Source of the DNA: Giardia intestinalis
Lineage: Eukaryota
Length of the DNA stretch: 64,000 nucleotides
NCBI GenBank assembly: GCA_000002435.2
Contig: CM018793.1
Strand: one strand, 5' to 3'
Part shown: positions 1 to 57,017 of the stretch, piece after piece
Layout: each line of letters begins with the position of its first letter
How positions within the stretch are numbered: position 1 is the stretch's first letter
The notes under the pieces: model-generated
What the model was told of the DNA's origin: nothing
Databases searched by the model: none
Seen by the model: only the letters and a program-made list of their open reading frames with translations
Program-made: the position numbers and the translations under genes

Positions 1-1298
1 CCACCGGGACGTGCAGAAGGTCCAGGTGCGTCTGGGTGGACCCGTACGACCACGCGGAGAAGACGTGCTACGGCATGGGCTGGTGCAGCTACAGCGGGGC
101 CACCGAGCAGTGCAGCTGCAACCCCAACACGGTCCCCGTCGGAGCGAGCGTATGTGTCTACGCGGCGTGCATGCCGAGTGGTAGCACCGATGACCCCAGT
201 ATGATATGCAGGGGGCGCGGGACATGCGTAGAGGGCCCTGTCGCCGGCACGGGACTGTGCAGGTGCGACAGCAGCAGATACCGCACAGACAAGAAGACCG
301 GCCAGTGCTTTGTCAAAGAATGCTTCGGGGCGCACGAGAGCATCCTGGCCGAGGTCTGCGATGGCGGTGGAACATGCAGTGAAGACACTAAAAAGTGCAA
401 CTGCAACTCCTCCGGCTTCCAGAGCCTCGACGGCCAGAACGGCTGCGTGCACAGCAGCTGCGTCTCGTCGGACAACAAGCTCTGCAGCGGCTTCGGCGCC
501 TGCGAGAAGACCGGCGACACCTACGGCTGCCTGTGTGCAAGTTACTATACTCTGGTCGACAAAGACTGCATCCCCACAAGGTGTCTCAAGGACGGGAAGG
601 TCTGCAACGGCGGTGGCACATGCTCCGGCGAGGGATCCTCTGCTACCTGCAGCTGCAGCCAGGGCTGGACCCCCCACGGGACCCTCTGCTACCCATCGGC
701 CTGCGTCTCCGGTGGGGCGCTCTGCGGGGGGAATGGCGACTGCCAGCTCTCCGACGGAGGCTCGTGCAGCTGCAGAAGCGGCTACGAGACCGTCTCCGGG
801 GGGCTCTGCGTCAGCAGCCAGTGCGTCCAGCGCGGCACCGACGGCACCGTGACGATCTGCGGGGGCAACGGCAGGTGCGTGTCTGAGAACGGCGTGACTC
901 CCAGCTGCGTGTGCAACGAGGGCTTCTCTCTCACAAGCGACTTCGTCTGCGGAGTCCCTGCTCCATCTAAAAAATCGTCTGCCGGCACGACGGCTGCGAT
1001 CGTGGTCGTCGTCCTCCTCGTCCTCGTTGCGGTGGCCGGCTTCCTTGTCTGGTGGTTCGTGATACGGCCCAGGAGAGGCGGCCCACTGAGGGAGCGCGTC
1101 CCGCAGAAAGGCTCCAAGTCTTCCAGCTCTTCTAGGTCCAAGCTCAGGCGGCAGGCGGACTCCAGCGTCTCGCTCCACGCCGACGTGCCCCTGCTGAGCC
1201 AGGCGTCCAACGTCAACTCCAGCATCCAGCTCTAGCCCGCTGCCCGCAAGGTGTCGGTATTGGTAAGTCGACGGCGCGGATCTGCATACGAATGTAAA
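1..1298. repeat. Segmental duplication, copy A, nucleotide-identical to 55606..56903
   Basis: A direct read of both intervals shows identical sequence and identical six-frame ORFs. Identity ends within TGTAAAC/TGTAAAT about 60 nt after the stop codon. Confidence 0.9.
3..1235 (+). CDS. High-cysteine membrane protein (HCMP), 3' part only (5' end truncated by window start): EGF-like Cys repeats, C-terminal TM helix and Ser-rich cytoplasmic tail
   Basis: The frame is open from the window edge to TAG at 1233-1235. The translation is identical to the C-terminal 411 aa of CDS 51766..56841. It carries repeated CxxC/GxC motifs and a TM helix (AAIVVVVLLVLVAVAGFLVWWFVI). Confidence 0.85.
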   Translation, partial: TGTCRRSRCVWVDPYDHAEKTCYGMGWCSYSGATEQCSCNPNTVPVGASVCVYAACMPSGSTDDPSMICRGRGTCVEGPVAGTGLCRCDSSRYRTDKKTGQCFVKECFGAHESILAEVCDGGGTCSEDTKKCNCNSSGFQSLDGQNGCVHSSCVSSDNKLCSGFGACEKTGDTYGCLCASYYTLVDKDCIPTRCLKDGKVCNGGGTCSGEGSSATCSCSQGWTPHGTLCYPSACVSGGALCGGNGDCQLSDGGSCSCRSGYETVSGGLCVSSQCVQRGTDGTVTICGGNGRCVSENGVTPSCVCNEGFSLTSDFVCGVPAPSKKSSAGTTAAIVVVVLLVLVAVAGFLVWWFVIRPRRGGPLRERVPQKGSKSSSSSRSKLRRQADSSVSLHADVPLLSQASNVNSSIQL

Positions 1299-1479
1299 CA
1301 TGATTTACTTCGAGGTTAGTTTGTCAACTGCTGTCCGAACAGGTTTTCCATGTGAGCCATCGCTCTGGGCAGACCTCCCGCTCACCTTCCGAGACCCGAG
1401 AGCCGGATGTCCTAGATCCCCGTGGGAGAAGAAGAAGGTTTGCCTATCCTCTTGGAAGCTGCTGTGCTTCTCGCAGCGC

Positions 1480-1700
1480 CTTCTAGGACCTCCCCTTCCT
1501 CTGGCTGGTTGTGGGCAGCCAGGACTCGTTCGCTTCTGTCAGCCAGACACCCCAAGGATCCCATCTCTTGTCGAGGGATTCACATAGGTCACATGGTGAG
1601 TCCATCCCGATGAGCGTGGCAAGTGATCGGCGCCATTGCCAGCTGCAGGCTTTCAGTCGCCTTCTCTATCGCCTTGGAGGAGGAAGCATGAGGTTCTTCT
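1480..1700 (+). repeat. Interspersed repeat, copy 1 (approximately 80% identity to 18860..19110)
   Basis: The string tctgtcagcc...cccatctcttgYcgagggattcacataggtcac...agtgatcggcgc...ttgccttggag occurs in both places in the same orientation. The short ORFs there share peptide tails (CRGIHIGH, SLVEGFT/SLAEGFT). Confidence 0.6.
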
Positions 1701-4700
1701 TTTGTCATCAGAATGGTATGACGTCCGAACCTCGATTCCCTGACTTCAGATGATGAACAAGCAGGGAAGTTCTTTGCATGGCACTTGCATGAGGGATTTG
1801 CTCAGACAGCAGCTACGGCGTCTGGCTACATGTTTCTCTTACGAGCCTGGTAATTGACCAGAGTTGCTTTACAGTCGCGGAGACACTGCTGCGTCTCTCT
1901 GAGTCTTTTAGAGAGACGATCCAGTTTAGTGTAGAAGAGTGAGGGCGATCCAGCCCCGTGCCTACGTGCTGCTCTGCAGTCTGCTGCTCCTGCTTTCTGT
2001 CTTCGTTTCCCTGAAAGCAGTCACGATGGCTCTCTGGAGCAATCGCTTGCATCCATCCGCAACCCTAGGCGTTACGGCTTGGAAGTCCATGTCACCGCAT
2101 AAGCTCTATGGAAGGCATTTACTAGCCATGGCAGATGGAGGTCGCCGCTTCTGGAGGCCCTGGTGCATGCCAGGCCTAGAAGACGCTGACTCCACTGGCT
2201 GCAGGAGCCCCCACCTACATGTGACAGCTTGAAGTAGCACCACTTCGAGGACAGAGGATATCCACAGCTCGAGAGGACGCGGCGGCAGAGAACAGACTCA
2301 GGCATAGCCACAAACAGACCCATCGATCCGGATGGATGAGGGCGGACACCTAATTGGCAAGCCGTTGGCTAGTCTATGTAGAATCGCACCCTCCAACGCA
2401 GGCTCTGACACACAAAGTTTAATGCAGACTATATGTACACAGCAGACGGGCAGAAGCCTGCTTCGTAGTGTGTGGAGGCTTTGATGAGGCAATCGCGGGC
2501 TTAATGAAGGCCGGGACCGGTAGCTCTAACAGAGGGCTTCCCAGCTTTGGAATACTTGCGATCACCATAGAGTCAATACAGTGAGTTATCTGCAGTAACA
2601 AACTTGTGGAGATAAGGGCAGAGTCCTATCAAACTAACTAGATACTAATGGATCCTAGCGTGAACTCGCAGTATAAGAACTTGCAGAAGGCACCGCATTC
2701 TACTCATCTGAGTAAGACGGCCAACTAAGTGGACCCATAGTGCAAAGACCACGAGGCCAAGGGCTCCTCCATAGCTTCAGAAGCCAACATCACAAGAGTC
2801 ACACTGGCTGCGGAGTGCTTTCTGATCCACTGAGGCTTAGCGGCATGGCTTCGTTTCCTAGTACGGCCAGACAGGCTTGAGACACGAGATACTCTGTCTG
2901 CTACAAAGCACACCTTCTGGCAGCGACTCTTGTCTATCGGGTAACTCTCGCATAGAGGAGGCAGATGGCTCTGAAGCGTCACTGCTCGCCTGATAGCTCT
3001 GGATCATAGCAGAGGAAGTTGTTTATGAGAATGCACCCCTAGTGTGTAGATCCACATTTTCGTGCGACGTGAGAAGACGTTTCTGGGTTGATCTGTCATG
3101 CCTCCATCTGCTCTAGCAAAATGTAACGCAACGCATGCACTATTGATCTATGTCGCCATGGCAGCCATAGTTAACTAGCCAACGAGACAATCGCTAGAGG
3201 AACCCTCGCACACTTATGAGCAGAGGCGCAGCCTGAGAGCAGTCCTCTGGCCGCTAAGTGATGGAGGAGCAGACATAGCGCTGCTCCGTGCAATCACACT
3301 CTCTTACCTTAGTAGCTATATGGGCAGCCCCGGTCTTGTGAGGTCTGTGGATAAGCTGCTTCACCCCATAAAACACTCAGAATTACTACAGGTGACACCT
3401 GCAAAATCTTACTGTTGGAGGCCATGCTCCACTAGAGACATGGCTCTGGAAACACATTGACTGATGGGAGCTCCCCTCTAGCGTTCTTAGGGGCGATGTC
3501 TGTCCACAATAGCTCTACACCCACTGCCTGTCTATGACCCAACTGTATCTTATTAGACCCCTATCTCCACTGAGTGGCTGATTCGAGGGTGATTGCCGTT
3601 ACCAGAATGATATCTTATATTGACTGCTAAGAGCTGTCTTTGCATATATTACGCTGCTTAGTACTGCACTCAAACGAAGTTTGCCATCGTTTCGCAGCTA
3701 TTGTGGATTGGAAGAACAGTTAGCACTCTCAGTAGTTCATGTGGTAATCGGAAGTCAGGGAAGTCTAAGTTGAGTGGGAAAGCTTGAAGAGGAAGTAGCA
3801 GCTCTTGTACTCCTCTGCTGGGTGATGCAGAGAACTGGCTCGTTTCTTAGCGTCGATAAGTTCTTCAGAATGCACGTTTCTTTGTATAAGGCCTGCATGC
3901 TTCGGATTGCCCTCTGTTGCCAGCAGAGCAGCCACCGCCCTGTGTGTCTCCTTCAGGCATATACCCATCTACGACGACGCCTCATGTATCCTCTCTGGAG
4001 AGGTATAACCGTCCCAATCCAGACACCTTGCTCTCAGCGCACACCTCGTATCTATCAAAGGCCAGGTGTTCGTCAACCATATCCCGTGAGCATCAGCGCT
4101 GTGCCACTATGTTACTTCCTGTCCTTCTTGAGGGGCGTGCTCTGACCATCTCAGTGTCTCTATGATAGGAGAGCTGTGGATCCGGAGGCTGCTGTGGCTT
4201 TCTGGCCCTCTCTGCTGTCCAGTAGACTGCAAGAGCGCCCTTCGGGAGTCGGTCCCCCAACCCTCTGTTCTCTCGGGGAAGTGGTCCTTGGATAGTGCTA
4301 CTTGGATGGTTCCCGAAGCCTCACTGCACGGGTGCTGCTTCTAAGAACTCCTGGAGCCTCCCTACAGAGTCGCCCAATGGCGCAAGTCTTACCCATTGTC
4401 AGCGGGGGTCTTGGCTCTCAAGGACATCTCAGGGACAGTACGTTTGACCCACGCCAGTGCCACTTCCTGGCAGAGGCATGCGGAAGATCTACTCCCTCTT
4501 GTGGATCCATCATTGGTATCGAAAGCACTGCGTCTGTTACCTTCGTTGGAGGTGTCGACAGATGGTACCCCGTATCTGCCCCATTGAAGAGTTGGAGGTC
4601 TGCTAAGGACAGCGAAGAGGATCCCATCAGGGCTGTGATCATATACCCGTCATTATGGCAACCATAGTGTAGATAAGACAACTGTCTGAGTCCTGTGACT

Positions 4701-7700
4701 CCCGGGGTGAGACGCCAGGGGCGTAGCTAATTCAAGCTGATGAAGGCTACCCTTGTCATAGCAGGCTTAGAAAATAGGGAGCGAGTGACGTACCTGGTGT
4801 CCATCAACGCACACATGCAGCCTGGAAGCCGTGTTCAAAGCACCAAGGCCTGCAGGGGAATGGCATCCGAACAGGCCCAACAGTTATGACTGTTTCTGAG
4901 GACAAGTCAGCGTGACTAAACGAGAACATGAGAACTCACAGAGACCCTCACAGTTTTGATGTCTGGGAGAACGTGGGGGCTGACCACTCCAAGGTTGTCC
5001 ATCTCATGAGCTGGCTTTCGATAGCAAACATAACAAGGAAGTGACCCCTAATTATACACAATCTCATGCCAGCCCATCGCAGGATAGACCATCATTGCCT
5101 GACCTACCAATCCGTCCATTGCTGTGATAGATGTAACAGTACTTCATCATCGGCCACCTTGCGGCTACACAGTCAGGGTATTATCCGTGACATTGCTTGC
5201 TGATGCTCTGCATAGGGCCCTGTCCTCGTAGAGTGACAGATGAGCCTCTCTGTATATGTGGATCTAATGATATGGCTCCTCTGGGACTTTCCACCTCTGC
5301 TTCTGTCTAGTATCTCACATCAATATGAAGTGGCCAGTGGCTGTTATTGGATCTTGCAGCATAACTATTACACATGTATGTGCCCATCAAGACTACCATA
5401 TAGGGTCACACAAGCCGGGAGCTCTGTCAGGCAATTATCGGACTCGATATCAAGATGGCACGGGGACAACACTCCCAGTGGTCGCTGAAGCATGAAGCAT
5501 TATATAGATCGTATAGCATACCAGCGGCAGCACAACGGCAGAGGACATACTTAGATGTAGATAGCGCCTACAGCAAGCGGCATGCTGTCGTTGTCGGTAC
5601 AACGGGCATAGTGGCTACTGGATCCACGCTTTGGTAGCCTCGATTGGAGCAATTGCACAGCGAAGGAGCAGAGCGAGGGGGCATGGAAACCAACCGGTCG
5701 AGCAACGTGTACATGTACGAGCACAGTTATAAGTCTCGCCCACACTAGTGGGTGGTGCTCTGCCTCAATGTGGACTCAGCGGGTTAGCTCTTATATCTAT
5801 GGTAGGGAGCAGAACACCACGCTGGTCATGTGATGAGAGGTCTTCATGCGGTCTTCCAACTAGCCTAGGCAGCACTTGGAAGCGACCAACCCTCTCGTAC
5901 CACGTCTCCTCTCCAAATAGGACTGAAGGCGCCCAGGGCGCTCTTCTAGGGCCTTAGTATCATGGAGCCCGTGCCAGGCAGGAAGGTTCTATATTACATA
6001 GCATGAGAGCCTCTATGACGTGTAAATACTTGCGTGGTTGTAGTGACGCGTCCTCATCAGCAAGTGTCAGGGCACATCAGTGGACAACTGTATAATAAGT
6101 CAGGCACTCTGTGTGCGATCATGCATCACAGCTCTCGTAACGGGCTACGGGCGACCTGAGGACTAGTACTCTATGGCAGCGCAATGTGAGGCGGTGAGCC
6201 TAAGGCAATCGCCGGATCGATGGCTTCAACGCGGCATCCAACAAGGTGCAGCAGGGCATCGAGCCAGCTGAGCATTGAACCAGGCCCTGGATAGGAGCTA
6301 AGAGCTCCTGTGCATGGCTGGGCTGCTCTCTAGATGGGAAAGGATGCACGTCGAGCTGGTCAGGTGCGATGCTGTAAGGTATCCACAGCTGTATCGATGC
6401 ATCTGGTAAGTCCACACTGGACTCCGGGAAGCACGCTGCCGGACAAGCCGAGGAGGCTCGAGGGATGATGGCGCCGTCTTGTTATCGCTATGCAGTGCTC
6501 CGTGGACATGTATACAAACCAGCATCTCCTGGTAGCCGAGGAGGGGGCAGAGCTAGGAGACGGCGAGTGTCCCATTATGAACGACTCCAGGCGCTACCCG
6601 ATCACTCCTTGGAAGGGCATATGCCTCGGCTAGGTTGCATCACATCCAGAGTAGAAGAGGAAGCTGTACTGTCCTATTTGTTTCTCAGGACAATGTGCGA
6701 ATAGAAAGCGGCCCAGCGACTGACACTCTGCACCGTCCTCCTCATCCGCGGCCTGAGCAGCCAGATGCCAGGCTCGATATGTAGGACGGAAGCTGCGAAG
6801 AATAAACTCACCACGGGGCCGATTGTCTGACACCAAAAAATCCAAAGGGACGATAGCGCCCACTGCCTCTTAGGAGAGCGCATCATGCACGATACCAGCC
6901 GTGCCAGCCTTGGCTTCTTAGGGGAGTAACCTGGGGACGTCCTGTACTAGCTTCGGCTTGTGAGGCGTTAAGACCTGTGAATAGCACAAAAGGAGGCAAC
7001 TGGGTGTACAGGCAGTGCATTGTGTTCGTGGAAGTGTACCGCAACTTCTAGGTGTATACAGCGGCACTAAGCCGGGCATCTCAACTGGCCTGCATTGGCG
7101 ACCCGCTTGCCACCGTGTTTGCTGTGATGAGAGGCTGTGTCTGTCCAACAGATTGAACAGGTATTGCACTTGCTTCTCTGGTGATGCATGCATGGTCATA
7201 TGTAGCTCTGGTAGGTAGCGTGGATACTATGATAGCTAAGCTGTCTGCCATCAGTAGAGAGTAGCAGTTAATCGCGCCAGAGACTCTTCCAGGTAAGCCT
7301 TCGGTCTTCGTGCCTGCTTCTCCACCAACTATAGTAATAACTGTATATCCAGAACAATGCCATGAAACGCTCCACTGCCTTTCAGAGTGAGACATGGACC
7401 TGCGTATAGGGCTAGAAATAGAACCCTGTACATCAACTGTTGTGCGCCTGGCGTGATGTCAGGTCTAGACCGCGGCACGATCTCTGCGTGCTTATGTGCT
7501 TGCGTGCATGCTCACTGCTATGTTGGAAATTGCAGCAAGGAGGTTGGCCTCTGAGTGCACCCACTCTACAGTGACTAGTCCTTAGCTGCACGTCTCAACG
7601 GAGGAGGGTGCTACTTGGGTGTGCAAAAGACTATCTGTGCACGGCGGCTCCTGGAGAGATGGTTCGCACAGAAAAGGTAGAGGCGACCAACAGACCAGGG

Positions 7701-10623
7701 AGGTAAGATCATCGCTAGAGAGTCTAGTTATAGATCTGGATTGCAACGAGGACACTTGTAATGCCTTTCTGGCCTCCGAACATAGAAAGATTGCAAGGCC
7801 TATAAATAGATCGGAGGCTACTTTTTGATTTTGTGCATTTGTAGCGGCGTAATATTTATTGGGAGCCAGTCTCGTCTGAAGCTGGGGAAATTCACTTTCT
7901 CTCCATATACAGGCGAAGATCTATTGTAGAGGCATACTGTACAGGCCGGTACCAGTCGGCGTGGTTGCTGTCCACAAATGTCTCACTTGCGTCCTCCCAC
8001 AACAGATGAATCGCCAAAGTGTCTCTTGGATTGCGTGATGTCCTACAGTGCATCTCTGTTTCGGCCAAAGATTGGCGCACGCGTTGTGTAGTTTAGATTG
8101 CTCATCCCCATGAGGATGTAATCCGCTCTCATCCTCTGCTTGTCTATCTCGTACGACCACTGCTGATGACCTTTCCAGATCAGTGGGTGCCTTCATCGGT
8201 CCTGCAAAGGCACGCATCATGTAGGTGACTACTGCAGACCAGAGTTCTGTCTACCAAGGAAAAGGGTCAATCTGTTTACCGCGTAGGCATTCATTGTGTG
8301 CCCTATATAGTCCAGCAGGTCTTGTGCTCTTTAACATTTTCTCAGAGCCCTGTCTGGAGCCTGCATGCATATCGTTACTGACGAGCACTTTAGATTCACC
8401 TAGTCACCTAGGACGTCAAATCCCTTACGCTGCATAATGGGTATGCTCAGTGTGAGAGATACGTAGTCAGCATCAGCCTTCTCGGCTCATTGTCTGGGCA
8501 ATACTACTGCTGTTTCTCATCCAATCCGCTGGCGCGAGGACCCAGCTCATGGCTAGCAAACCGAGAAAGGCCATTCCGGGAGGTCTTCAAGCGCGCTAGT
8601 ACCTCGTTAGCGGGTAGCTAACAGTGACCGTGGCGCGTACTTCCACCAAGCCATGGCCTCCTTGAGCGGGGGTGTGAAATGGGGCCCTGTTATCCTGCGG
8701 CCCTGCTGATTCCCCGGACAGCAGGGATCGGAGCAGCCCAGCTAGCGCCTCTGGGTCTCCTTCTGTCCTCGTTGTCTGAGATGCGCTTGACTCTATAAAC
8801 TTGAAAAGGTACTGTACTGTGCTTGGGTCTGCGAGGCTCAACTAGGCAGGGCTACCCTCTTGGAGACTACGCTGAGGTACCACACATCCCGAGGAACCTG
8901 TATGGAGTACCACAGCCCAAGGGCACCTTTGTCTGTCGAATGCAAGTTGTAGTTATGGCTTCATAAGTGCAGCCTTTCTTAAAATAACTGATCAACTACA
9001 GAATTCGCCTACTCACCCAGAGCCACCTGATGGAGGATGATATCAGTCTCGTCAGTCGTCTACAACGTACACCAGTCGAGTCTTACAGATGAACAAGGGC
9101 TACCCAGTCCGCAGCACTAGACATTAGCAGATATCCTTCACGACAAGGGGGATAAGCGACTGGTAGACCAAAATAGTCGTCTGCCCATTGAAGATCTTCC
9201 AGTCACTGACCTAGGCCAGCTTCCTACAAGATTCTTGGCGAGTTGTATCAGAGACGCATGCTTATGGAACTCCCAACTCAAGGTGTATGCTGCTGGATCC
9301 CACCTTTCATACCAGTCTATGTATAGCGGTGCTCCGGCCTTTAGTGAAACTACCCTGGAGACCACATAAAATATAATGCCCCAGTCGGGTATTATCAGAC
9401 TCCTACAGCTATGCAATGAGGTCTGCTTTTCGCATTACGCATCAGAGAAGTATGTTGGGCTGTAGTGGTGCAATTCCTCGTATGGTATGGTTCGTGAGTC
9501 CAGAGATAAGATGCTTGTATCAATCGATCTGTTTACCTAGGGCCAACCATAAGTTGGACTAACGGTGACAATCAGACGCTGCTCGACTTCCTGACAGCAG
9601 ATAGAGATCCGACTACCCTAGTACCTTACCTGAGACCACAGGGACGCTGATTACGGGTCTGATTAATAGCTGGCGGAGCGACACGACAGGCCTAAGTTTT
9701 TTCTGCCGAAGTAGCCCACCACAAGAAACTCTTTGTCGTTCATACCAACAGATTCAGGCACTGCAAGCAATCGTGGTTCTACTACCGCTACAATGGACAG
9801 CACCAGGATGATCCAAAAGGGGTAATGGGAGTCCTGGTTTCTTAGCTTAGGAGACAACGCGGTTTGGGCAGTGCTTCCTCCTTGTCCAAATGTAGAAGTG
9901 TTGGCCTGCGTTTCCTGAGCTCCAATTGAGTCTTTGTCGTGCGGTGAGGTATCTTAAAATATCCATTACAAAAAGCGAAGAATAGCGCCGTCCACGCTCA
10001 ACAAACCAAAGCGTCTCACGGGCTAATCTACACCGATTCACATCTTCCATGGACCTTAGCGACCACCGTAACCTTCTGCTAGAATCTCACGGGAGCTCGT
10101 CTTTGAGTCCAGCTCTCCTACAACAGTCAGAAGCCGCAAACATAATCTGATGAAGGAGAATGCTGCAAGGACTGAGAAGAGAGTGCCGGTGAATGGGGGT
10201 TCGCAGGGACCCGATCCGCGCAGGGAAGGCGCAGGGGCCAACACCTCGGGGACACAAGGGCGTTAGGAGAGGAGCCAGCAGCAAATCTGTGGCACAGCGG
10301 GGACACTCAGGGCGTCCTTTCATTGTCTGAAGGGCAGGGGAGAAGCAGGTGTGTGAGGCGGTCCAGCAGATTATTTTTGAGTTTCTGCCTCCCTGCGTGC
10401 TGCACGAGGATGAATTTCCTTGGAGGCCGCTTGCCCAGGCCCAAAGGGTCCCTAGGGATGGCTTATACAATAGACACATTTACTACCCACTAATTTGCAT
10501 CTCTCAAACAAAGGTATCATAGGAGATGGACTCTTGAGATTATCTGATATAGTATGATCAGGTAGAGTGCTTTAGCTTTGGATATCTTATTCTTGTCCAT
10601 ATAATAAGCTAAGAAGGGCTTCA

Positions 10624-12534
10624 ATGTTATTGGTAGCTTTCTACTTCGTGCTGAGCGCTCTTACGGCAGCTTGTCAATCGGATGCCCAAATTGCTAAATG
10701 TACGCAGTGTGTAAAAATAAGTACAAGTGATACTGAGATCTGTACAGAATGCAAAGCTGAAGGAGACGTTCCTATCAACGGAGTATGCACACCAAAGGGG
10801 GATGCTACTGTCACAACTGCTGGATGTAAGACTGATGCTGGAGCTGAAATAACAACAGAAAAGACATGTGGGCAATGCGACGGGGCTTACTTCCTCCATA
10901 AGAACGGATGCTATGCAATTGGCGGGGACGTTGGACGCCTTATTTGCGCCGATGCCGCAGCTGCTGGTCGTGTGTCATCAAAAACTCCTGGCGTTTGTGA
11001 GGGTTGCGTAGTTGGCTATTTTAAAAACCCAAGTGCAGCTAACAATAAGGACTCTTGTATTGCATGCAATGATGCAACTGGAGTTGTGGATGGTGGAAAT
11101 ACGTATAAAGGAATTCTGAACTGTGCTACGTGTCAGCCGCCAGCCAGTGCTGGTGCTGCTCGCCAAGACAAGGTTGCCGTATGTGAGTCATGTCTTGAGG
11201 GGTTCTTTGTTGACAGCAATGGGGCAGCATGCACAGCATGCCAGGACAATAACTGTGCTAAATGCGATGCAGGAGCAGGAAAATGCACGAAGTGCAAGGC
11301 AACCGCTAACAAGCCATATCTAAAAAAGGGCGAAACCGAGGACTCTAATACATGTGTTGATAAAAGTGGATGTAATGATAACTCCCACTTCACTGATGAT
11401 GCTGACGATCCTACTAATGGAAAAATGTGTAAGAAATGCTCAGAAGGGATAGCAGACTGCAAAACGTGTGCTTTGAAGGATAATCCTGAAGGTACAATTC
11501 TCATCACGTGCTCTGCTTGTATAGCAGGTACTAATCAACCCAACGCCGACGGAACGAAGTGTGTACTATGTGATATACAGGATTGTATAAAGTGTAATGA
11601 AGAGAATATGTGTGAAGAGTGTACTGGAGGTAAAAGCCTAAGCCCCTTAAAGAACATGTGTATGGAGGGCTGTCCTGCAGGAACTCGTGATGTCAGCGGG
11701 ATATGTACTAATTGCCATAATTCTTGTGCAGAATGTGATGGTGATAGTGAAGCCTCCTGTACAGCTTGTTATCCTGGGCTTGTATTGAGCAAAAGCAATA
11801 CTGGAGCCACCGGCACATGCATCCCAGAGTGCACGGGAAGGTACGCAGAGAACTGCGAGGCTGGCCAGTGCACGGCCGTCGTTGGGGGCTCGAAGTACTG
11901 CAGCAGGTGCAAGGCAGGGTTCGCCCCGGTGGACGGCGTCTGTGTGTCGACAACGACAAGGGCAGTAACTGGATGCATGCCAAATGATAACAATGATGGA
12001 ACATGCAAAGCGTGTACAACCACATACTTCTTGCAATCTGGCGGATGCTATCAGTCGGCTGCATACCCAGGCAGCAACCTATGTAGCAATGCTCAGAATG
12101 GAAAATGTACGAATTGTGCTAATGGACAACAACCAGAAGCTAGCACTGGATCTTGTCCAGCATGTGCATCTGGTTGTAAAACATGTGAGGTAGCAAACAA
12201 GGAGGCATGCAAAACGTGCCTTCCGGGATACTATCTTGCCGGAGCAAAATGTGTGAAGTGCGACACCAATGATCCCAATGATGGTAGCCATATTGTTGGT
12301 GTCCCAAATTGCGTAAGCTGTGCCCCTCCAACTGGTGGCAATGGCGGTCCTGTCACCTGCTACGTCAAGACAGATGTCACTAACGATGGTGGTAACGATA
12401 ACAACGGCGGGAACACGAACAAGAGCGGCCTTAGCACAGGCGCCATAGCGGGGATCTCCGTCGCTGTCATCGTTGTTGTCGGCGGCCTCGTCGGCTTCCT
12501 CTGCTGGTGGTTCATCTGCAGGGGCAAGGCGTAG
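10624..12534 (+). CDS. Variant-specific surface protein (VSP)
   Basis: ATG with AT-rich upstream (tataataagctaagaa). Signal peptide MLLVAFYFVLSALTAAC, about 12% Cys in CxxC spacing, a GGCY motif (SGGCYQS), a C-terminal TM helix and the invariant CRGKA* terminus. Confidence 0.92.
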   Translation: MLLVAFYFVLSALTAACQSDAQIAKCTQCVKISTSDTEICTECKAEGDVPINGVCTPKGDATVTTAGCKTDAGAEITTEKTCGQCDGAYFLHKNGCYAIGGDVGRLICADAAAAGRVSSKTPGVCEGCVVGYFKNPSAANNKDSCIACNDATGVVDGGNTYKGILNCATCQPPASAGAARQDKVAVCESCLEGFFVDSNGAACTACQDNNCAKCDAGAGKCTKCKATANKPYLKKGETEDSNTCVDKSGCNDNSHFTDDADDPTNGKMCKKCSEGIADCKTCALKDNPEGTILITCSACIAGTNQPNADGTKCVLCDIQDCIKCNEENMCEECTGGKSLSPLKNMCMEGCPAGTRDVSGICTNCHNSCAECDGDSEASCTACYPGLVLSKSNTGATGTCIPECTGRYAENCEAGQCTAVVGGSKYCSRCKAGFAPVDGVCVSTTTRAVTGCMPNDNNDGTCKACTTTYFLQSGGCYQSAAYPGSNLCSNAQNGKCTNCANGQQPEASTGSCPACASGCKTCEVANKEACKTCLPGYYLAGAKCVKCDTNDPNDGSHIVGVPNCVSCAPPTGGNGGPVTCYVKTDVTNDGGNDNNGGNTNKSGLSTGAIAGISVAVIVVVGGLVGFLCWWFICRGKA

Positions 12535-12547
12535 ATGTACTTAGGTA

Positions 12548-12554
12548 GTAAACG
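12548..12554 (+). terminator. Putative Giardia polyadenylation signal AGTAAAC (AGTRAAY), 14 nt after the VSP stop
   Basis: Exact motif match read at 12548-12554. Confidence 0.6.
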
Positions 12555-12844
12555 CGTTGCTGTATATGGATTATGTAGATTATGCTACTAGGCCCCGGCT
12601 GCTGGTGCGTCCAGACGTCCCACGGGTAAGCCTCACCCATGTCCTGGCCGTCTGGAGACGAGGGCTGGTTGTGGATAACATGCTAGGGATTCCTCTCTAT
12701 TAGCGCATCCAGAGCTTGGTGCGCCCCTCTGCCACTTCGCGGGCATGTACTCGATTTGAGTGTGCGCGTCCAGGGCCCTGGCCTTTTCGCAGACTCTCTG
12801 CTCTACCCGTGGCGCCTCTCCTTGGTCTGCCGTCCTGGTGGGTG

Positions 12845-13075
12845 AAGCTCGGGTCGCTGTCTTTTTTAGATGCCCCGTCTGTCGGGGGCTGCCACCAGGC
12901 TCTCTCACTGGCTGGGCCCCTCGGTGTCCGTCCGGCTGTGTCCCGGGCAACGCTCCCACAGTCCAGTCACCTAGGTCTCACAGTGGGCCGGCTGGTGGGT
13001 GAGGCGGGGTTGGTGGGGCGGTGAGGCCGGAGGGGACCGGGGGCGGTGTCTCTATGTGCCCCTGGGTCCGGTGGA
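12845..13075. repeat. Inverted-repeat arm A (imperfect, about 80-90% identity to the reverse complement of 14630..14905)
   Basis: The core ggccggctggtgggtgaggcggggttggtggggcggtgaggccggagggg is matched on the opposite strand at about 14700-14760. Flanking similarity extends about 100 bp on each side. Short ORFs on opposite strands share peptides (GWAPRCPSGC, GRLVGEAGLVGR). Confidence 0.7.
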
Positions 13076-14629
13076 CCATTGAGGTGGTGGGTGATCCCCA
13101 CTCTGTTTGCCAAGGTGGTTGTGTCTGATCTCCAGCCTTCGTTGCACTCCCGAGACAGAGGCACCGACGATCGTGTCGTGTCCCTTGACTGAGTGCCTCC
13201 CTTGGCCCCTGCATGTCTCAAGTAGTACTGCTGCTCTGTCTGGCTGGTGCGTGAGGGGTGAGGCAGACCATCGCAGCCCATCTTGATGCTCTGTGCGGGT
13301 CTGCTGAGCCTCCTGGCATGCCCTGTCCAGTGCCTCGACGGTAGTTCACCTCGGGCCAGCAGGGGTATGGACAACCCTGTGGATGGGATGGGGTTCTGTC
13401 ATGCCTCTAGTGTGATGGCCCAGAAGACTGGCACGGTGGGGCACTGGTGGCTGCACTGTCCCCGTGGCCAGCTGTGCTGCTCCTGGTAGATCCTTGTTGT
13501 GGAGCGCTGTGTGTTGTTCATAGGCAGGGGTGAGTCCTCCTTGGTCTCAGGATGCTCTACCATCAGAGAGGAGTACGCTGAGGGTCACCCAACATCACCT
13601 GCTGTGCCCTCGGGAGCTCCCGATGTGATCTATCAGGACCTTGACACCTCCTCGTGGCTCTGATGACCCCTCGGGGAGAGCCGGGGCACCCTATACTGAG
13701 GGGTGTGCACCCTCCTGCACGAGCCGGGTCACCCACTGCACTGCCCCCAAGGAGGTCTGCTATGAGAGGCAGTGGGATGATTGACAGCCCCTCAGAGTGC
13801 AGTGGAGGGTGCTCGTGGTCGTCTCTGTGACCGGGCATCACTCTGATGGTCGGCTCTGTGCCTTTGTGGTGCTCAGAGGTCACCTGTCCTCCATAGCCTG
13901 CCGGACAGCCGGGCCTCTTGTGGCATCCAAAGGCCTCCTCGCTCCTCTGGCTGCTGCCCCCTCGGGTCATCGGTGGAAGTAGTCGAGGCCAGCGGAGTCT
14001 TCGGTGGGTCGTGCCTGCCTGGGTGTCATGGGGGGCTGGCAGCTGTCAGGGCTCTGCCACTGCTCGCCTGCCTGGAGTGTGCCTCCCTTGGGCCTGCTGT
14101 GCTGTAGTGTTTGAGTCCTCTGGCTTCCTATCAGGCCCTTGGTTGTGAGGGTGACTTCACCTGGCCCTCTGATGCCCCTGTGGATGAGCACAGTAATGTG
14201 TCTGGCCGGGGATCTCTGGTGCCCGTGTCTGTCACTGCCTCTCGGGTGCTCGGGTGGTTGCCTGGGGCTCTCGTACGGGGCACAGTCAGCGTGTCCCGAG
14301 CAGACTCCAGTCCTCTCTGGGTCATGCACAGTCTGTCCGTGTGTGGATGGTCCTCCTGCACTCAGGTCCATCTGTGTGCACTGTCACTCAGTCTCGAGAG
14401 CAGACCAGTGCAGTCACCAGGGCTGCTGTCAGAGGGAGTCGTCTGCCACTACATCGCTCGAGCAGACCCTACAGCTCAGGCTGGCTGCTGTGCACCCTCA
14501 TGGTAGGGCTGCCTGACTCCCTTGGTCATCCTCTCTGTCCCGGTGTGCACGGCTCCTGAGGCGTTGTCTGGGTGGAGGCACTCACAGACCACGAGCCCAC
14601 AGAGGGGTGAGTCACAGATGGATAGCCCC

Positions 14630-14905
14630 CAGTCACCACAGCTATGATCACCCCAGTCCACCGGATCCAGGGCACATACGAACACCGCCCCACCCGGTCC
14701 CCACCAGGAGCCCCTCCGGCCTCACCGCCCCACCAACCCTGCCTCACCCACCAGCCGGCCCGCCATGAGATCCAGGTGACCGCGACTGTAGAGCGCTGAC
14801 CCAGAACCACAGCCAGACGGACATCGAGGGGCCCAGCCAGTGGAGCTGGAGAGGTGGCGAGAGAAGATCTGCTTACTCACAGGGGAAGCAGCGACCGAGA
14901 ACAAA
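14630..14905. repeat. Inverted-repeat arm B
   Basis: See arm A. The arms enclose about 1.55 kb of GC-rich, GT-skewed sequence with no ORF. Confidence 0.7.
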
Positions 14906-15571
14906 TAACGATGCCCCTTATAGCGAGCCAGAGACCTAATAGCTGCTGTCGTCGAGACAAGTGAAAGCATTGTTAAAAAGATAGTAGCAACCCATATCTA
15001 TCATCCACCATGAAGAAAGACCATGAAGCGAGGCACTACTCATAGACTACATGTGCTGGTGAGTAAGCTGAATCCAAGGCTGAGCGACGCCCACACATAG
15101 TCTGAGCACACACCCACAGAGCGACCGGGGAAGGTGCCAGGTTTTAGATACACTAATAGAGGGGACCCTCTAGTATGTTGTCTACAACCAGCCCTCGTCT
15201 CCGGATTGGCCAGGAATTGAGCGAGAATTTACTCGTGAGACTTCTGGACCGCGTGAGGCGAGGCTCCAGCAGCACAGTACCTATTTTGCTGCACAGGAGC
15301 TCACACTGGCACAAGATGGCTCCGTGCACTCAGATTGATGGACAGAAGGGGTCAATTCGTAAGATCTGTCTCACTAAGGGCGCTTTGGTTGCAATCCCAC
15401 GACTTCAGAGGCTTCTGTGCTGATTGGGATTGGGTAATGATGCGCGAGGAAAAGCGTTCGACCAGGAGGTAGCAAGGCTGAGGCTCACCGAATCCATGAT
15501 TGTTATCTACCCACAGATTCTGCGAAAATTGGACCCAGTACAGTAATTGTTAGTTTGGCGTAATAGAAAGC

Positions 15572-18187
15572 GTGAATCTAATTGCGCATGACATGGTCAG
15601 TGAAAGTCCCACTCGTGCTGCAGAGAGCGCTGGCAGTGGCCTCGATAGCATCCCCATGTTCAGTCCCGAAGGGCTGTATCAGCGCGAAGGCGAGCTGCTA
15701 GGTAAAGGGGGCTTCGGTGCCGTTCGCGCCATCGATGGGTGTCCAGGCCTTTCTGTGAAGGAGAGGATGATCAAGCGTAGTGAGAAGAAGCTCACAGAGT
15801 GCGAACTGAAAACTGTTACGAGACTCTCCCAGCCTGGCGTCATCAAGTATCACCAGGTGATCAGGAGCAACGACCCATCTTTGTCATCATGGACCGCCAC
15901 CACGGGGATCTCCAGAAATTTATCACTGCCTACAGGGCAGCTCGTAAACCCAGTCCCAAGGGGCTGATGTTCCCTCTCCTAGAGCAGATGGCTGACGCCC
16001 TCGCCTACCTCCACAACCCTCGCAAGGTGGCCGAAGACGGGAGCTTATCTTACAGCCTCGTCTACGGGGACCTCGGGCCCGCCAACTCTGATGAATAGGG
16101 ACGGCTAGCGCATCGTGCTCGCAGACTTTGGGCTCTGCAAGGACTCTCTGCATAGTGGAGGCACCTTTGCAGGAACGTCGGCATACATAGCCCCCGAGAC
16201 CTTCATACGAGACGAGCACCGCTTCGGATATCTGAGCCTCCGGAGTCGTCATGTATGAGCTTGCCGAGCTTCTCACACTTTGGGAGCCAGAGGATGCGAA
16301 AGCAGTCTTTGACAATGAGTGGAGGCCTGATTTGGGCGCCATCACAGATGAATTTGTAAGAACTGTCATCGAGAAGATATTATCCTGGACCCGGCAGAGC
16401 AGCTCACGACCAGAAAGATCATTGGCTTTTTCCAAACACTCAATAGCCCTGCAATTAAAGCGGAGGATCAACATAAGGAATCCGAACATCTTGCAGAACG
16501 CTCCACTCCGACAAATGTTACGGTTTCTTTAACTTCTTCTACGTCCATGAACATGTCTAAGCCCCCGCTTGTATATCCTTTCAGTGGTACAAGTGTTGAA
16601 GCTGCTGAAGAACACCTTACTGAGGAAGACAGTGGTATCGACCCTATTCATTGAAGAATAGAGGCTCCTTTTGTTACAGACGGGGGCGCATACAGCAAGA
16701 AGTATATGGCTCTTGCGCGGAGCATCCCAGCTCTGACTCCCTTCATTATGCGCGTGTCGTTATTCTTGACCAGTCATATAGCAGGTCAACCCTCTTCAAC
16801 GACCTCTTTGGAACATGCCTCAAGGCGTTGGACGAAGATGACGACTGACAAAAGACGACCAAGGGGCTTACAGCGGGATTCATCCCAGGTGCAGGATCCT
16901 ATCCGACCATACTACTACTCTATTGTAAGGGGTCCGAGAGCAAAGAGCGTGCCACAGAAAATGATCAGAATATTGAACGCTGTATAGGCGCTTTCGCATC
17001 TGCCATTGCCGACATTCTTATTGTTCATATTTTGCAGACAGATGTTAGTCGTGTAGAAGGATTCTGCGCCAATCTCCTCAAATCGATCTTCTCAGTCTAC
17101 TTCCAGCCCCGCAACGACGTCAAAATATATATCACAAACTTAGGCTGTTCATCGATATCCATCGGTGTAATGGAAAGGGAGAAGATCACATGAAGGAAGC
17201 ACTTAACAATGATATCAAAGGAATATATGAGAACTCAGTCCCTTCCAAATTGCGTAATAGCTTCCGTCGTTACATCGACTTCAGCTTCTGGTTCATTCGG
17301 GACACGTCCTGTGAGGACAAGAATGGTAACCAGGATGAATCGGACCTTTACAAACAACAAATAGAAGGTATCCGCAGAGACATACAGACACTTGTTGCCG
17401 AAGTCATCAATCAACTTGCTTCGAGTGAACGCTTGTTCCTCACCCTTGCTGATTCTGCTGAATTCTATAGGAAAATTTGGGACACAGTTTGCAACAATGA
17501 GAATTTTGATGCTCCTTTCATACAGATGGTCTTTCTAACAAAAATGCTAGATGACAATGGTGTTACTTCACTTATGAAAGTGGCTATGAAAGGTGACATA
17601 AACTCTGTGAGACTGCTGATACCAAGCCAGAAGGAACTGAAGGATAGGAAAAATCACAATGCTCTGTACTATTCTCTTAAAAATGGACATCTAGAAGTTG
17701 CTGAGATGCTTATATCTTATGAGGACCCAACAGATGATGATGGTATGACAGCACTTATGCGGGCTGTTATTAGGGGGGCGCAAAGCTAGTAGAGCTGCTT
17801 ATACCAGCTCATAATGGAATGAAGGACAAGGCTGGAAACACGGTGTTCATGCATGATCTTAAGAACAAGCACACAAGCATAGCTCTGCTTCTCCACAAAC
17901 ACGGGGCCTCATCCTAGACCCCAGTCATGTGCGCTTCCTTCGCCGGCGATACTGAAAGAGTTAAGAAGAACCTTTCTGATAAAGACAAGAAGAATGATGA
18001 TGGTGAGACTGCTCTCATGTTGGCAGCAGAAAATAACAGAAGACATACTCTTTTTTACCAAAGTCAACTTGCTAGTTGTTGTCTGAGTAAATATCCCTGC
18101 AAACCACCATTGCTCTGGGCAGATGGGCTTCTCACTTACTCTTGGGCAAAGTCCAAAATCCGAAATTCGGATGCCATCCAATCCTAA
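15572..18187 (+). pseudogene. NEK-type protein kinase with coiled-coil/ankyrin tail, inactivated by multiple frameshifts and stops
   Basis: Kinase subdomains appear in order but in different frames. These are GKGGFGAV (about 15700), IFVIMDRHHGDLQKF...LAYLH, a mutated catalytic loop VYGDLGPANSDE (about 16060), GTFAGTSAYIAPE (about 16150) and MYELAELLT (16251). They are followed by ankyrin-like repeats split across frames (GVTSLMKVAMKGD, DGMTALMRAV, DGETALMLAAENN) at 17190..18060. Confidence 0.55.
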
Positions 18188-18859
18188 AGAAAAGAAGAAC
18201 TTTATGTTCATCCCTCCGGGAGCTGCTACTGTTCTTCGCGGTGCTTTTTGAGGATTCCTCCCTTCCCTTGGCCAACTACTGTCTGACGCTTGAGTGGGCA
18301 CCTGCTGTCTCGGGCCTTGCGTCGGTCACTGCGATCTGGCCCCCACAGAATCCAGGGCTCTGGTCTTCCGTGACGAAGATCGCGCCCCACGACCCCGGGT
18401 GTCCACCCCGTTCCTCGGGGTGCCTCTTCGTCTCCTCGTGGAGGGCACTATCTGTTCCATTATCAAGGGTGCGCTCCCCATGCACCTCTATCTTGGAGTC
18501 ATAGTACGCGTTCGTGGATGCCAGTGGACAGCTCCCATGCGTTGTGTCGGGGGAGAAGTATGGCCCTCCTATTCATGGATTGCGGTGCGCTCTTGCAGGT
18601 GCTCCGTCACCCAGCACGAGACCGTGTCGACGCTCACCTTGTGCAGCGTGTTTGGCTCAGTGACGTGTGGGCTGGTCCATCTGCACTGCACAGCACACCT
18701 GGGGGAATGATTCGGTCTGTCGAGGCGTCGGTCCAGGGCCACCTCTCTGAAGGGTGTCATCCGAAGCATCAGAAGCGATCAGGACCAGTTCATCGAGGTC
18801 GTCTCTCTCTACAACCGGCGCCCGTCTACTCGAGGGTGTCAGGCACTGCCAGCTGCTGC

Positions 18860-19110
18860 AGCAGACCCCAGGCAGGTGGCCCAGACCACCACTCTTCGGT
18901 ACGGTCAGGATCAATCCGCCTCTGTCAGCCAAGCACTCCAGGGCTCCCATCTCTTGCCGAGGGATTCACATAGGTCACGTGTGGGTCCATCTCGACTAGC
19001 GGGCGATGATCCTGGCCAGCGTTGGCCTAGTGCGGCGAGTGATCGGCGCATCCATCACCAGTTTCAGGCCCTCTATTGCCTTGGAGAAAGCACAAGGCTC
19101 TTCTACCAGG
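18860..19110 (+). repeat. Interspersed repeat, copy 2
   Basis: See copy 1. It lies immediately 3' of HCMP 19279..21150 (minus strand). Confidence 0.6.
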
Positions 19111-19278
19111 AGTGGACGACATCTGATTTTCAAATTTCAGACTCTAGATTTGGATCCCCGTTGATGAACGAGCAAGAGACACACCTACCTAGAATGGCGC
19201 TGCATCTTCTTGATTCAAGAAAACATTTACTAGCACATACTGCGAGATTATCAATGCAGATTATGCTATGATAAATAA

Positions 19279-21150: not shown

Positions 21151-21751
21151 TTTATTGCAATTTTCAGCAAGTAGCAACGTGATAATTTCCCTGTAATCTA
21201 TCGTTGGTTACTACGCGTGGTCTCCAGGGAGCCACCACTAAAGTGGTTGTACTTGTTGTTTACCCAAAACGTAGCCGAGTCTTACATTCTTCCAGTCAAT
21301 AAGTTTGTCAAAATAAAAGCACAACCCTGAAACGTACCGGCCTACTTACAAGCGCGTGCATAATGTGGTCGACGGAGAGCATATGAAGCATAGCTGATGT
21401 CTCCATGCGCGGATCTCTGCTTCGGCGTTAACTAATAACAGCCCCGTACTAAATGAAGGGTGGCCTACTTAACTCTACCAAGGCCAAGATAGCGACATAT
21501 CTCAGATTGGATTTCAGGTCGGAGAGCCGCCGGCGCCGTAGAGCCTGCGGCTAGCTTCTGTAGTGCTGCCTCTCCGAACTATGGGGCACAAGCTGGAGCT
21601 AGGATCCTTATGCACGACAGTTGTCCGTACTTCACCGCAAGATCGAGAGCCGATTGGTCATTCTCATCAACCAAGCCCAGCTCGTAGGGGACGAGATACT
21701 TGACTATGTTTGGATGATCCCACGCCGCAGCGTGCATTAGCGCTGTCCAGC

Positions 21752-22804
21752 CTAAGAGTCCTGCTCGCCCGCCTCGGCACTTCGTAAAACTTGAACTGCC
21801 TCGACGTGCCCCACCTGCGCTGCAATCATGAGAGACGTCATCTGCTGCTTGATCTCTGTCATCTTTTTTTCATACTCGCCCAGCCACTTCAGGCATCGTA
21901 CGCTTTTCGCGACGATTGCCAGCATCAGTGCTACTGGCTTTCCGATCTCTTGCTTGTTGCTCAGGTGTATATTGCTGGATATGCGTATCCCCGACTCATG
22001 AGGCGCCAGGAGCCGGCATGCCTCTGCACTATCCTTCTCCGCAGCAATCATGAGCGCAGTTCGATCGTCCGGTCTCCGCATCCCCTTCTCACTGGCGATC
22101 AAGTGCTTGATTGCTGGGATGTTATTGCTATACACAGCGATCATCAGGGCTGTGCGTCCATCGTTTGTACGCCGGCGGATGCTATCCTTGTATTGCACCA
22201 GTGGCTCTGCAGAGCGCATTGCTACGGCTATCATCAGCTACGTAAAACCATCTTCCCCCAGCAGGCACTTTTCATGTGTGATAAGCAGCTTCAAGCACGC
22301 AACTCGACCCATCTCTATGGCGTAGCGTGAAGCGCACCAGCTCATACTATCGCGTCTTCCGGCCTGGTACGGTATCAGAATCTTTAATCACGCACAGTCT
22401 CCTTCCCGCGCAGCCAACATCAAGAGAGTTCTACCTGTTACAGATCCCTCGAGAATAGGTATTGGTAGGTCAGCTTCGTACTTACAGAGCCTTTCCATAA
22501 CATTTAGGTTCTTGTTCTCATATGCATGATAGAGGGCAGTCTTTCCTTTGAAGTCGGCAAGACCCTTCTCATAAGGTCCGAGGACATCAATGAGACGCAG
22601 TGACTGGCGGTCAATGCAGTACATAAGAGCGGTCTTCTGGAGAGAATCCTGGACTCCGTGTTCATGCCGTGCCAGGATCATTGCAATGTCGTAGTAGCTT
22701 TTGCGGAGCGCAAGCATAAGTGCTGTGTACCCCTTATCATTACGGCGTTTAGCGTGTGCTTTCCTTAACGAAAAAACAGCATCAGTATCATTATTAGCAA
22801 CTGC
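21752..22804 (-). pseudogene. Ankyrin-repeat (protein 21.1-like) gene remnant split into at least two ORFs
   Basis: Two minus-strand ORFs (21752..22234, 22388..22717) are both full of ankyrin consensus (TALMIAV, TALMLAL). The frame upstream of Met22717 still encodes an ankyrin repeat (KRRNDKGYTALMLAL) back to a stop at 22805-22807 with no Met. A 150-bp gap separates the two ORFs. Confidence 0.5.
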
Positions 22805-56903: not shown

Positions 56904-57017
56904 ATTGAAACGTAAGAGACGGGCCGGTATGACAAGCTCAGGCTTCCTTACAACTCCTGCATATGCTACGGATATGCTACCGTCTCTAATCGAGACCCTT
57001 CCTATATCGAAGGCGCA

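Follow-up and report, generated by a model that had tools for sequence, protein, structure and literature searches.

The stretch at 1299-10623 of the analysed window (64,000 nt of Giardia intestinalis WB chromosome 5, contig CM018793.1) was found to encode no protein and to contain no detectable relic of a gene or transposon and no known structured RNA. It is probably a non-coding spacer that forms the long 5′ flank of the VSP gene 113304 in a variable island of VSP and HCMP genes, with the junction of an HCMP duplication at its left end. A preliminary description, made from the sequence alone, had reported 9.4 kb without a credible gene between an HCMP copy and a VSP in a variable region. This placement was borne out by Pfam and by exact matches to WB proteins: the stretch of the preliminary description, 1236-10623 (9,388 bp), lies between HCMP GL50803_00d15250 and VSP GL50803_00(d)113304, and the flanking proteins match the records KAE8304611 and KAE8304612 of G. 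intestinalis WB (ATCC 50803) exactly. As these two accession numbers are consecutive, the 2020 annotation contains no protein in the stretch. The left boundary was corrected: the 63 bp at 1236-1298 are the tail of the duplication and not unique, and the unique stretch is 1299-10623.

The longest start-to-stop open reading frame (ORF) and the longest stop-to-stop frame in 1236-10623 were each found to contain 130 amino acids (10087-10479, minus strand), whereas 300 Markov-2 random sequences of matched composition, used as the chance baseline, gave a maximum of 171 +/- 31 amino acids (5-95%: 134-228). The stretch contained 12 ORFs of at least 100 amino acids against 11.4 +/- 3.2 in the random sequences, and 67 ORFs of at least 60 amino acids against 61 +/- 5.7. 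The ORF spectrum is at the chance level and the ORFs are therefore random-looking, in agreement with the earlier account of motif-free ORFs below 135 amino acids; what is unusual is the missing gene. A codon log-likelihood model was trained on 15 housekeeping genes of the window and tested by leaving one out; it gave real genes 0.04-0.21 per codon in frame (typically ~0.13) and negative values in every other frame, whereas the best 100-codon window of the stretch in six frames reached 0.046 and showed no distinction from random (0.050 +/- 0.024). The codon-bias scoring proposed in the preliminary description thus places the stretch at the random level. The peak of a VSP/HCMP-trained codon model was -0.10 in the stretch against -0.05 +/- 0.04 in random sequence and 0.26-0.48 in real VSP. 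The six-frame translations of both strands, with stops masked, contained 0 Pfam families at E <= 1. Neither a long ORF nor Giardia codon bias nor homologues were found, and the absence of a credible gene was confirmed by ORF statistics, codon bias and Pfam alike. The Rfam search in E-value mode over 1-24000 found no family in the stretch (a chance mir-1286 match at 622-683 lies outside it), and the ARAGORN scan gave 0 tRNAs in the stretch; known structured RNA of either type is thus lacking.

The scan of the window for regions that lack a stop-free frame of 150 codons or more found one large gap at 1305-10575 (9,271 bp), and the remaining three gaps were of 1.0-1.9 kb, all within the first 23.7 kb. 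From 23.6 kb onward, where dense spacing had been described, the spacers between long ORFs measured 11-148 bp. For this genome, the published median length of all intergenic spacers is 79 nt (mean 392 nt), as against 1,280 nt (mean 2,131 nt) for the spacers that flank VSPs (bioRxiv 10.1101/2022.03.07.483299). The stretch is ~24 times as long as the genome mean spacer and ~4.4 times as long as the VSP-flank mean, and it is an extreme case of a gene-free spacer.

Four short ORFs of the stretch were named in the 2007 annotation and none was annotated in the 2020 re-annotation, which took out many small ORFs of the over-annotated 2007 genome (PMC7000408). The ORFs at 2072-2323, 3765-3968 and 9847-10050 were judged not to be genes. 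The homologue search of 5.8 billion proteins with the 104-aa ORF (7081-7395) returned only its own cluster, and the phmmer search of 1.84 billion cluster representatives with the 130-aa ORF (10087-10479) likewise matched its own cluster only.

Relics of genes were searched for by tblastn with 27 proteins of the window, including the VSP, the two HCMPs and the ankyrin and NEK genes, the only match in 1299-10623 being 21 residues that lie within a ~140-nt interspersed repeat. The same search does pick up ankyrin fragments (15.7-18.0 and 21.6-22.9 kb) and VSP-HCMP cross-similarity elsewhere. The tblastx comparison of the stretch with the rest of the window found nothing in 1299-10623 beyond the ~140-nt repeat. 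The extended VSP polyadenylation motif of 17 nt, ACTTAGGTAGTRAAYGC, taken from PMC3091692, had no copy in the stretch with up to three mismatches, its single match in 64 kb being at 12539-12555. Of a decayed array, neither residual Cys-rich similarity (CXXC or EGF-like repeats, transmembrane segment with CRGKA tail) nor relics of the VSP 3′ signal were thus found. RVT_1, endonuclease and other Pfam domains were absent from the six frames, and the stretch had no similarity to the reverse-transcriptase-bearing contig L007 of the A2 isolate DH; a relic of the non-LTR (long terminal repeat) retrotransposons GilM, GilT or GilD was found neither by domain search nor by this contig comparison. Tandem Repeats Finder and the repeat finder detected no tandem or internal repeats in 1299-10623. 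The stretch was also considered as a decayed copy of the genes at 57-62 kb, downstream of the second HCMP copy, and this was rejected as no similarity was found. Metagenome pattern scans with a 27-mer from the stretch and with a 21-mer from the ~140-nt repeat gave 0 matches each.

The left end of the stretch was found to be the edge of a duplication. The duplicate at 1-1298 covers the C-terminal part of the HCMP and 63 bp beyond its stop, and it ends at the poly(A)-signal-like tGTAAAC (1292-1298). The full-length HCMP proteins d15250 and 15250 are identical at 1689 of 1691 residues, so that the duplication would be very recent or held uniform by gene conversion. Two contigs, L007 of the A2 isolate DH and the A2-like metagenome contig L006, carry the orthologous HCMP at ~90% identity. 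Past the duplication end both contigs match copy 2 (to 57042) and not copy 1, and the stretch thus starts exactly at the WB duplication junction. The HCMP in DH and L006 is followed by a short inverted-repeat element and a reverse-transcriptase ORF. In L006 (1-7923; ENA ERZ28660572 scaffold_840) the HCMP has RPL27A, a kinase, Yip1 and a Vps41-like protein of 1,649 aa on its left, and the window upstream of HCMP copy 2 lacks all four; this suggests that the ancestral left flank is the one beside copy 1, at the left of the window, and the ancestral right flank the one beside copy 2. In the S4 table of bioRxiv 10.1101/2022.03.07.483299 the d15250/15250 pair is given as '<- ->' with 55,063 bp between, which disagrees with the window, where the copies are in direct orientation and their starts lie 55,606 bp apart.

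The stretch shares only two pieces with the rest of the window, the 63-bp duplication tail and the ~140-nt repeat. The interspersed repeat described at 1480..1700 does exist, in a shorter form at 1520-1655, with ~84% identity (98 nt in self-blastn) to 18906-19070 and an indel of 31 nt. Its copy at 18.9 kb is conserved in A2-like contigs. As a structured RNA the repeat was unremarkable, with folding z-scores of +0.4 to -1.2.

At least the right third of the stretch was found to be transcribed into ORF-less RNA. Two complementary DNA (cDNA) contigs, L004 (SRR9222558; 7027-8873) and L005 (SRR9222555; 7019-8559), both 100% identical to the window, terminate in CCCATGTACTCTGCGTTGATACC, the reverse complement of the Smart-seq template-switch oligonucleotide; its orientation shows that the RNA is of the + strand and has its 5′ end at 7027 in L004 and at 7019 in L005. 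No genomic GGG was found ahead of 7019 or 7027, and these ends are therefore the product of template switching at RNA ends and not of mispriming of the oligonucleotide. For SRR9222552, a neighbour in the accession series, PMC7325058 states a Smart-seq2 library from single cells of G. intestinalis; adjacent numbering and the oligonucleotide sequence suggest that SRR9222555 and SRR9222558 belong to the same Smart-seq2 study. The transcript is at least 1.85 kb long, its first AUG opens an ORF of 9 amino acids and its longest AUG ORF contains 39 amino acids. It starts 3.6 kb ahead of the VSP and runs in the sense of that gene. The cDNA contig L019 (SRR9222555), with 1 mismatch to the window in 1,942 nt, contains 734 nt of the spacer followed by the first 1,208 nt of the VSP. 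The + strand of the spacer contains almost no A-runs and no AGTRAAY signal; with oligo-dT priming, the RNA from 7.02 kb therefore probably extends into the VSP. A cDNA with a defined 5′ end and no translatable ORF, as in a sterile or long non-coding transcript, is thus present. Sterile transcripts are abundant in Giardia (PMC1885649), and of the transcription regions reported by Tolba et al. (PMC3792122), 1,881 lie over 500 nt ahead of an annotated ORF; since sterile and far-upstream transcription are common, the RNA in the stretch is not evidence of a gene. The scan for bacterial promoters and terminators near 7.0 kb gave nothing meaningful, its models not being applicable to Giardia. The suggestion of non-coding RNA loci in the preliminary description holds for the right third, which is transcribed and ORF-less, and fails for Rfam families and tRNAs; it stands only in the weak sense of pervasive transcription.

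The guanine-plus-cytosine (GC) content of 1299-10623 was found to be 51.7% (49-57% per kb) against 44-49% in the dense part of the window; elsewhere the housekeeping genes contained ~47% and the HCMP genes ~64%. A GC content of 53.9% was reported for the 2 kb upstream of VSPs against 45.2% in ordinary genes (bioRxiv 10.1101/2022.03.07.483299), and the stretch, like these VSP flanks, lies above ordinary genes. Its observed/expected CpG ratio was ~0.62 (0.55-0.68) against 0.82 +/- 0.10 in the dense part. The dinucleotide island at 2-16 kb (CpG ratio 0.53-0.68) spans the spacer, the VSP and the inverted-repeat segment, and contained TpA at ~0.93 against ~0.77 and AA/TT at 0.69-0.86 against ~1.0, together with an excess of CA/TG. 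A TpA ratio near 1 fits DNA free of coding constraint. Third-order Markov models of housekeeping and Cys-rich genes, applied to the stretch, mostly followed GC content.

The sequence of the stretch is correct. Illumina-based contigs of public runs were found to be 100% identical to the window over 7019-8873 and 99.9% identical over 9223-10924 and 9890-11831. No frame-hopping coding signal of the kind left by indel errors was found in the stretch with the codon model, and the search for plasmid similarity with the stretch gave no match. The old proteins GL50803_107308 (95%) and GL50803_32736 (91%) diverge from the window ORFs 7081-7395 and 2072-2323, respectively, whereas GL50803_135991 and GL50803_119703 are exact to the window and each occurs twice in the old proteome. 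The contig L002 carries a second version of the sequence in 9406-9880 and is identical to the window from 9881 on into the VSP; the cDNA contig L019 ends at 9890. The edge of this tract may be the boundary of a homogenised VSP-proximal segment, and a second, mosaic copy of the stretch is probably present upstream of the twin VSP, 72 kb away. Raised allelic variation around VSPs was reported by Xu et al. 2020 (PMC7000408). At position 9786 the independent contigs L001, L002 and L003 carry T and the reference window C, which may be an allelic or paralogous variant or a residual assembly error. The terminal 30 nt of L003 (1336-1365), CTCTCAGATTGCTATCGACTGTGGTTTCAG, had no match to the window beyond 9590 and may represent a structural variant, a paralogous copy or an assembly chimera.

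Collinearity of DH (A2) with WB was found between 35.7 and 12.8 kb, with an identity that drops toward the VSP from 98.6% to 95% and then to 86%. In P15 (assemblage E) the collinear part, at 87%, reaches down to 23258, and the contig stops 80 bp beyond. The retrieved DH, P15 and metagenome contigs stop at the HCMP, the VSP or the TruD gene, and none crosses into the stretch. Duplication, break of synteny and raised variation, as in VSP flanks, are thus present as the duplicate edge, the VSP twin 72 kb off, the variants at 2072-2323, 7081-7395 and 9406-9880 and the contig breaks in DH and P15. The homology of L008 (6925-7863; ENA ERZ18534468 NODE_677), an A2-like metagenome contig, to the window stops at 23267, followed by the presence of a coiled-coil protein gene in place of TruD, whereas the DH contig L014 is collinear with WB there. 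Either the isolate is truly rearranged here or L008 is an assembly chimera; its right end was not used as evidence of rearrangement.

According to PMC7000408, regions around VSPs "tend to be gene-poor" and vary more between alleles, and duplications make up 6.9% of the genome; long VSP flanks with a raised GC content were described by Rodriguez-Walker et al. in a 2022 preprint (bioRxiv 10.1101/2022.03.07.483299), and variable islands are located at synteny breaks (Jerlstrom-Hultqvist et al. 2010, PMC3091692). Like the VSP flanks of WB (PMC7000408; 10.1101/2022.03.07.483299), the stretch has a bona fide VSP as its immediate neighbour, lies directly upstream of this intact gene, is a spacer far above the genome norm without an annotated protein, has a GC content (51.7%) above the coding average of 45.2% and is accompanied by duplicated VSP/CRMP pairs and sequence variants. 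It differs in being ~4.4 times longer than their mean, and several published VSP-pair spacers carry retrotransposon, pseudogene or 'VSP-like' similarity, none of which was detected in the stretch with the tools used. The variable islands of PMC3091692 are matched in the atypical nucleotide signature, in the VSP, HCMP and ankyrin neighbours, in the P15 and DH contigs that stop at the edges and in the A1-A2 identity that falls from 98.6% in the core to 86% near the VSP; those islands were defined by genes, whereas here the largest island component is gene-free. The RNA resembles the sterile transcripts (Elmendorf 2001; Teodorovic et al. 2007, PMC1885649; Tolba et al. 2013, PMC3792122) in that it was oligo-dT-primed, is ORF-less and has defined 5′ ends. 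Bidirectional promoters give rise to the classical sterile transcripts, which run antisense to genes, whereas the RNA of the stretch is intergenic, at least 1.85 kb long and sense with the downstream VSP. Remnants of GilM, GilT and GilD between divergent VSP pairs (Table 2 of PMC7000408) are likewise multi-kb non-genic DNA by duplicated VSPs, and in the A2 isolate DH an RVT_1 ORF within 2.5 kb after the orthologous HCMP forms a parallel to such relics; unlike them, the stretch contains no RVT_1, endonuclease or other Pfam domain and no similarity to the reverse-transcriptase contig of DH.

Under the reading of 1299-10623 as a non-coding VSP flank in a variable island, such islands would be reshuffled by segmental duplication and by ectopic recombination between members of multigene families; the reshuffling would drag along and then strand flanking DNA without coding constraint, and the stranded DNA would drift to a composition of its own, CpG-poor and with TpA not avoided. 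The + strand RNA from 7019/7027 would most likely be sterile transcription of the kind pervasive in Giardia, probably reading on into the VSP and using the VSP poly(A) site. Several points weigh against this reading. Its 9.4 kb lie far above the published mean VSP flank (2.1 kb), and to call the stretch just a VSP flank may understate it. The transcript evidence consists of three short contigs from two single-cell libraries, and continuity from 7019 to the VSP is inferred across 8874-9889, which no retrieved contig covers. The second copy is drawn from protein variants of the 2007 assembly and one contig, and allelic variation would explain the variants equally well. The DNA comparison was limited to the window and the retrieved contigs; CENSOR found very old transposons in other VSP flanks (bioRxiv 10.1101/2022.03.07.483299), and kinship of the stretch with subtelomeric gene-free DNA, with other VSP upstream regions or with very old transposons is possible.

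A graveyard of VSP or HCMP (or ankyrin or NEK) pseudogenes decayed past ORF recognition, as the preliminary description had supposed, would agree with the position between an HCMP and a VSP, with the 208 pseudo-VSPs annotated genome-wide and often arrayed (PMC7000408), with a GC content intermediate between housekeeping and HCMP genes and with the ankyrin fragments that tblastn detects in the neighbouring 12.5-23.6 kb. However, the tblastn search that detects those fragments gives nothing in 1299-10623, the Pfam families VSP, EGF, Ank and Pkinase gave 0 matches there in six frames, the peak of the VSP/HCMP codon model was no higher than in random sequence and no relic of the 17-nt poly(A) motif was present with three mismatches permitted; decayed genes are decidedly unlikely, and neither tblastn, tblastx, Pfam, the codon models nor the poly(A) motif lent support to the supposed decaying array. 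The stretch might instead be a functional non-coding control region of the VSP, duplicated with it and giving a long upstream RNA into the VSP that serves silencing or switching by RNA interference (RNAi) or epigenetically. The + strand 5′ ends at 7019/7027 in two libraries, upstream of the VSP and in its sense, the link between spacer and VSP in the cDNA contig L019, the variant contig that is identical from ~-740 to the VSP and diverged further upstream, and the unusually long and GC-rich VSP upstream regions, for which epigenetic control was suggested (bioRxiv 10.1101/2022.03.07.483299), all speak for it. Sterile transcription is ubiquitous in Giardia and uncorrelated with regulation (PMC1885649), promoters of 100 nt are enough for VSP expression from plasmids (bioRxiv 10.1101/2022.03.07.483299), and the left 6 kb gave no transcript evidence; such a control region is therefore unlikely. 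A slim chance is given to the specific form in which a promoter near 7.02 kb would drive a multi-kb leader RNA into VSP 113304, the RNA would take part through RNAi or epigenetically in keeping all but one VSP silent, and the stretch would be a duplicated unit; if this were true, long VSP flanks would be functional control regions and not junk.

The possibility that the stretch holds real small or unusual protein genes (GL50803_32736, 135991, 107308 and 119703, or spliced genes) has in its favour that these four ORFs were named in the 2007 annotation and that RNA was found over 7019-8873 and 9890-10623. It is highly improbable, as nothing was annotated between KAE8304611 and KAE8304612 in 2020, codon bias is at the random level, the 104-aa and 130-aa ORFs have no homologues, the ORF at 7081-7395 lies on the strand opposite to the observed RNA, 5-9% of residues differ between the variants without visible constraint, and only 8 cis and 5 trans introns are present in Giardia (PMC7000408). 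The stretch might also be artificial or foreign, as a chimeric join made at the HCMP duplicate in assembly, as contamination or as genes riddled with errors; this could be suspected from the left end, which coincides with the end of a 100% duplicate, and from the 2007 assembly, which was fragmented here with the ORF entries spread over several contigs. Independent Illumina contigs agree at 99.9-100%, the EukProt numbering (P000437, P000438, P000441) sets the ORFs 3765-3968 and 9847-10050 beside the HCMP in unchanged order, frame-hopping coding signal and plasmid similarity are absent and the assembly was validated by optical maps (PMC7000408); this explanation retains next to no probability and was rejected.

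As a non-coding flank of VSP 113304, the stretch is an unusually long case of an already known feature, the gene-poor and GC-richer VSP flanks (Xu 2020; Rodriguez-Walker 2022). The main use of the result is as a sanity check: in a genome that is otherwise 81% coding, the one large gap is real, correctly assembled and without a hidden gene. The small additions for VSP regulation and genome plasticity are the exact duplication edge, the CpG-poor composition with TpA not avoided and without a trace of gene or transposon ancestry, and the same-sense ORF-less RNA 3.6 kb upstream; none of the three alters current understanding. The coordinates of the features are given in Table 1.

Table 1. Features located in and beside the non-coding stretch (positions in the window)
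Feature	Position	Strand	Evidence or remark
HCMP/CRMP GL50803_00d15250 (KAE8304611), C-terminal 410 codons	1..1235	+	truncated by window start
Direct 100%-identical duplicate of 55607-56904	1..1298	+	self-blastn, repeat finder
Unique, non-repetitive, non-coding stretch	1299..10623	no strand	ORF, codon-bias, Pfam, Rfam and repeat tests
Copy of ~140-nt interspersed repeat	1520..1655	+	other copy 18906-19070
83-aa ORF	2072..2323	-	old-annotation relative GL50803_32736, 91% protein identity; codon bias at random level
67-aa ORF, old "hypothetical protein GL50803_135991"	3765..3968	-	exact match; twice in EukProt
Non-coding transcript	7019..8873	+	two Smart-seq2 cDNA assemblies, 5′ ends 7019 and 7027
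104-aa ORF	7081..7395	-	old-annotation GL50803_107308, 95% identical; orphan, antisense to observed RNA
Tract of second sequence version (contig L002)	9406..9880	no strand	13 differences; 9881-10917 identical
67-aa ORF, old "hypothetical protein GL50803_119703"	9847..10050	-	exact match; twice in EukProt
cDNA contig L019 (SRR9222555)	9890..11831	not given by contig	734 nt spacer + first 1,208 nt VSP
130-aa ORF, longest of stretch	10087..10479	-	orphan
Intact VSP GL50803_00(d)113304, 636 aa	10624..12534	+	Pfam VSP E = 1.5e-79; start context tcAATGTT
Extended VSP polyadenylation signal ACTTAGGTAGTAAACGC	12539..12555	+	4 nt past VSP stop; sole copy in window

The left flank at 36-1235 was found to contain the EGF-rich C-terminus of the HCMP (Pfam EGF_2/EGF), with 100% identity by tblastn to residues 1282-1691 of the 1691-aa HCMP at 51766-56841 (KAE8304628). 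The VSP at 10624-12534 is an exact match to KAE8304612/KAE8304640/XP_001705844; its gene name, GL50803_00113304 / 00d113304, and its location on chromosome 5 were taken from the supplement of bioRxiv 10.1101/2022.03.07.483299. The S4 table of that preprint lists two identical, convergent copies of VSP 113304, 72,283 bp apart, and also d15250/15250 as a duplicated CRMP/HCMP pair that encloses the genes of this window. KAE8304614 is the TruD pseudouridine synthase, encoded at 23662-25698.

The gene-sparse zone was found to extend past the VSP, over 12535-23661, and the accession numbering leaves only one annotated protein, KAE8304613, in the interval from the VSP to TruD. This zone contained the expressed 199-aa ankyrin ORF GL50803_10587, present on 38 short Logan contigs, and a 632-aa Cys-rich protein at 19279-21177; the ankyrin fragments at 15.7-18.0 and 21.6-22.9 kb are visible to tblastn only. 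Directly after the VSP, a segment of 59-62% GC is flanked by nested inverted-repeat arms at 12609-12709 / 15147-15249 and 12906-13076 / 14656-14842, which are 78-80% identical. The ~2.6-kb span 12609-15249 equals the spacer size of convergent duplicated VSP pairs, reported as 2.5-2.8 kb (Table 2 of PMC7000408), and no partner VSP comes after it. An element that resembles these inverted repeats was found to follow the HCMP in DH and in L006.

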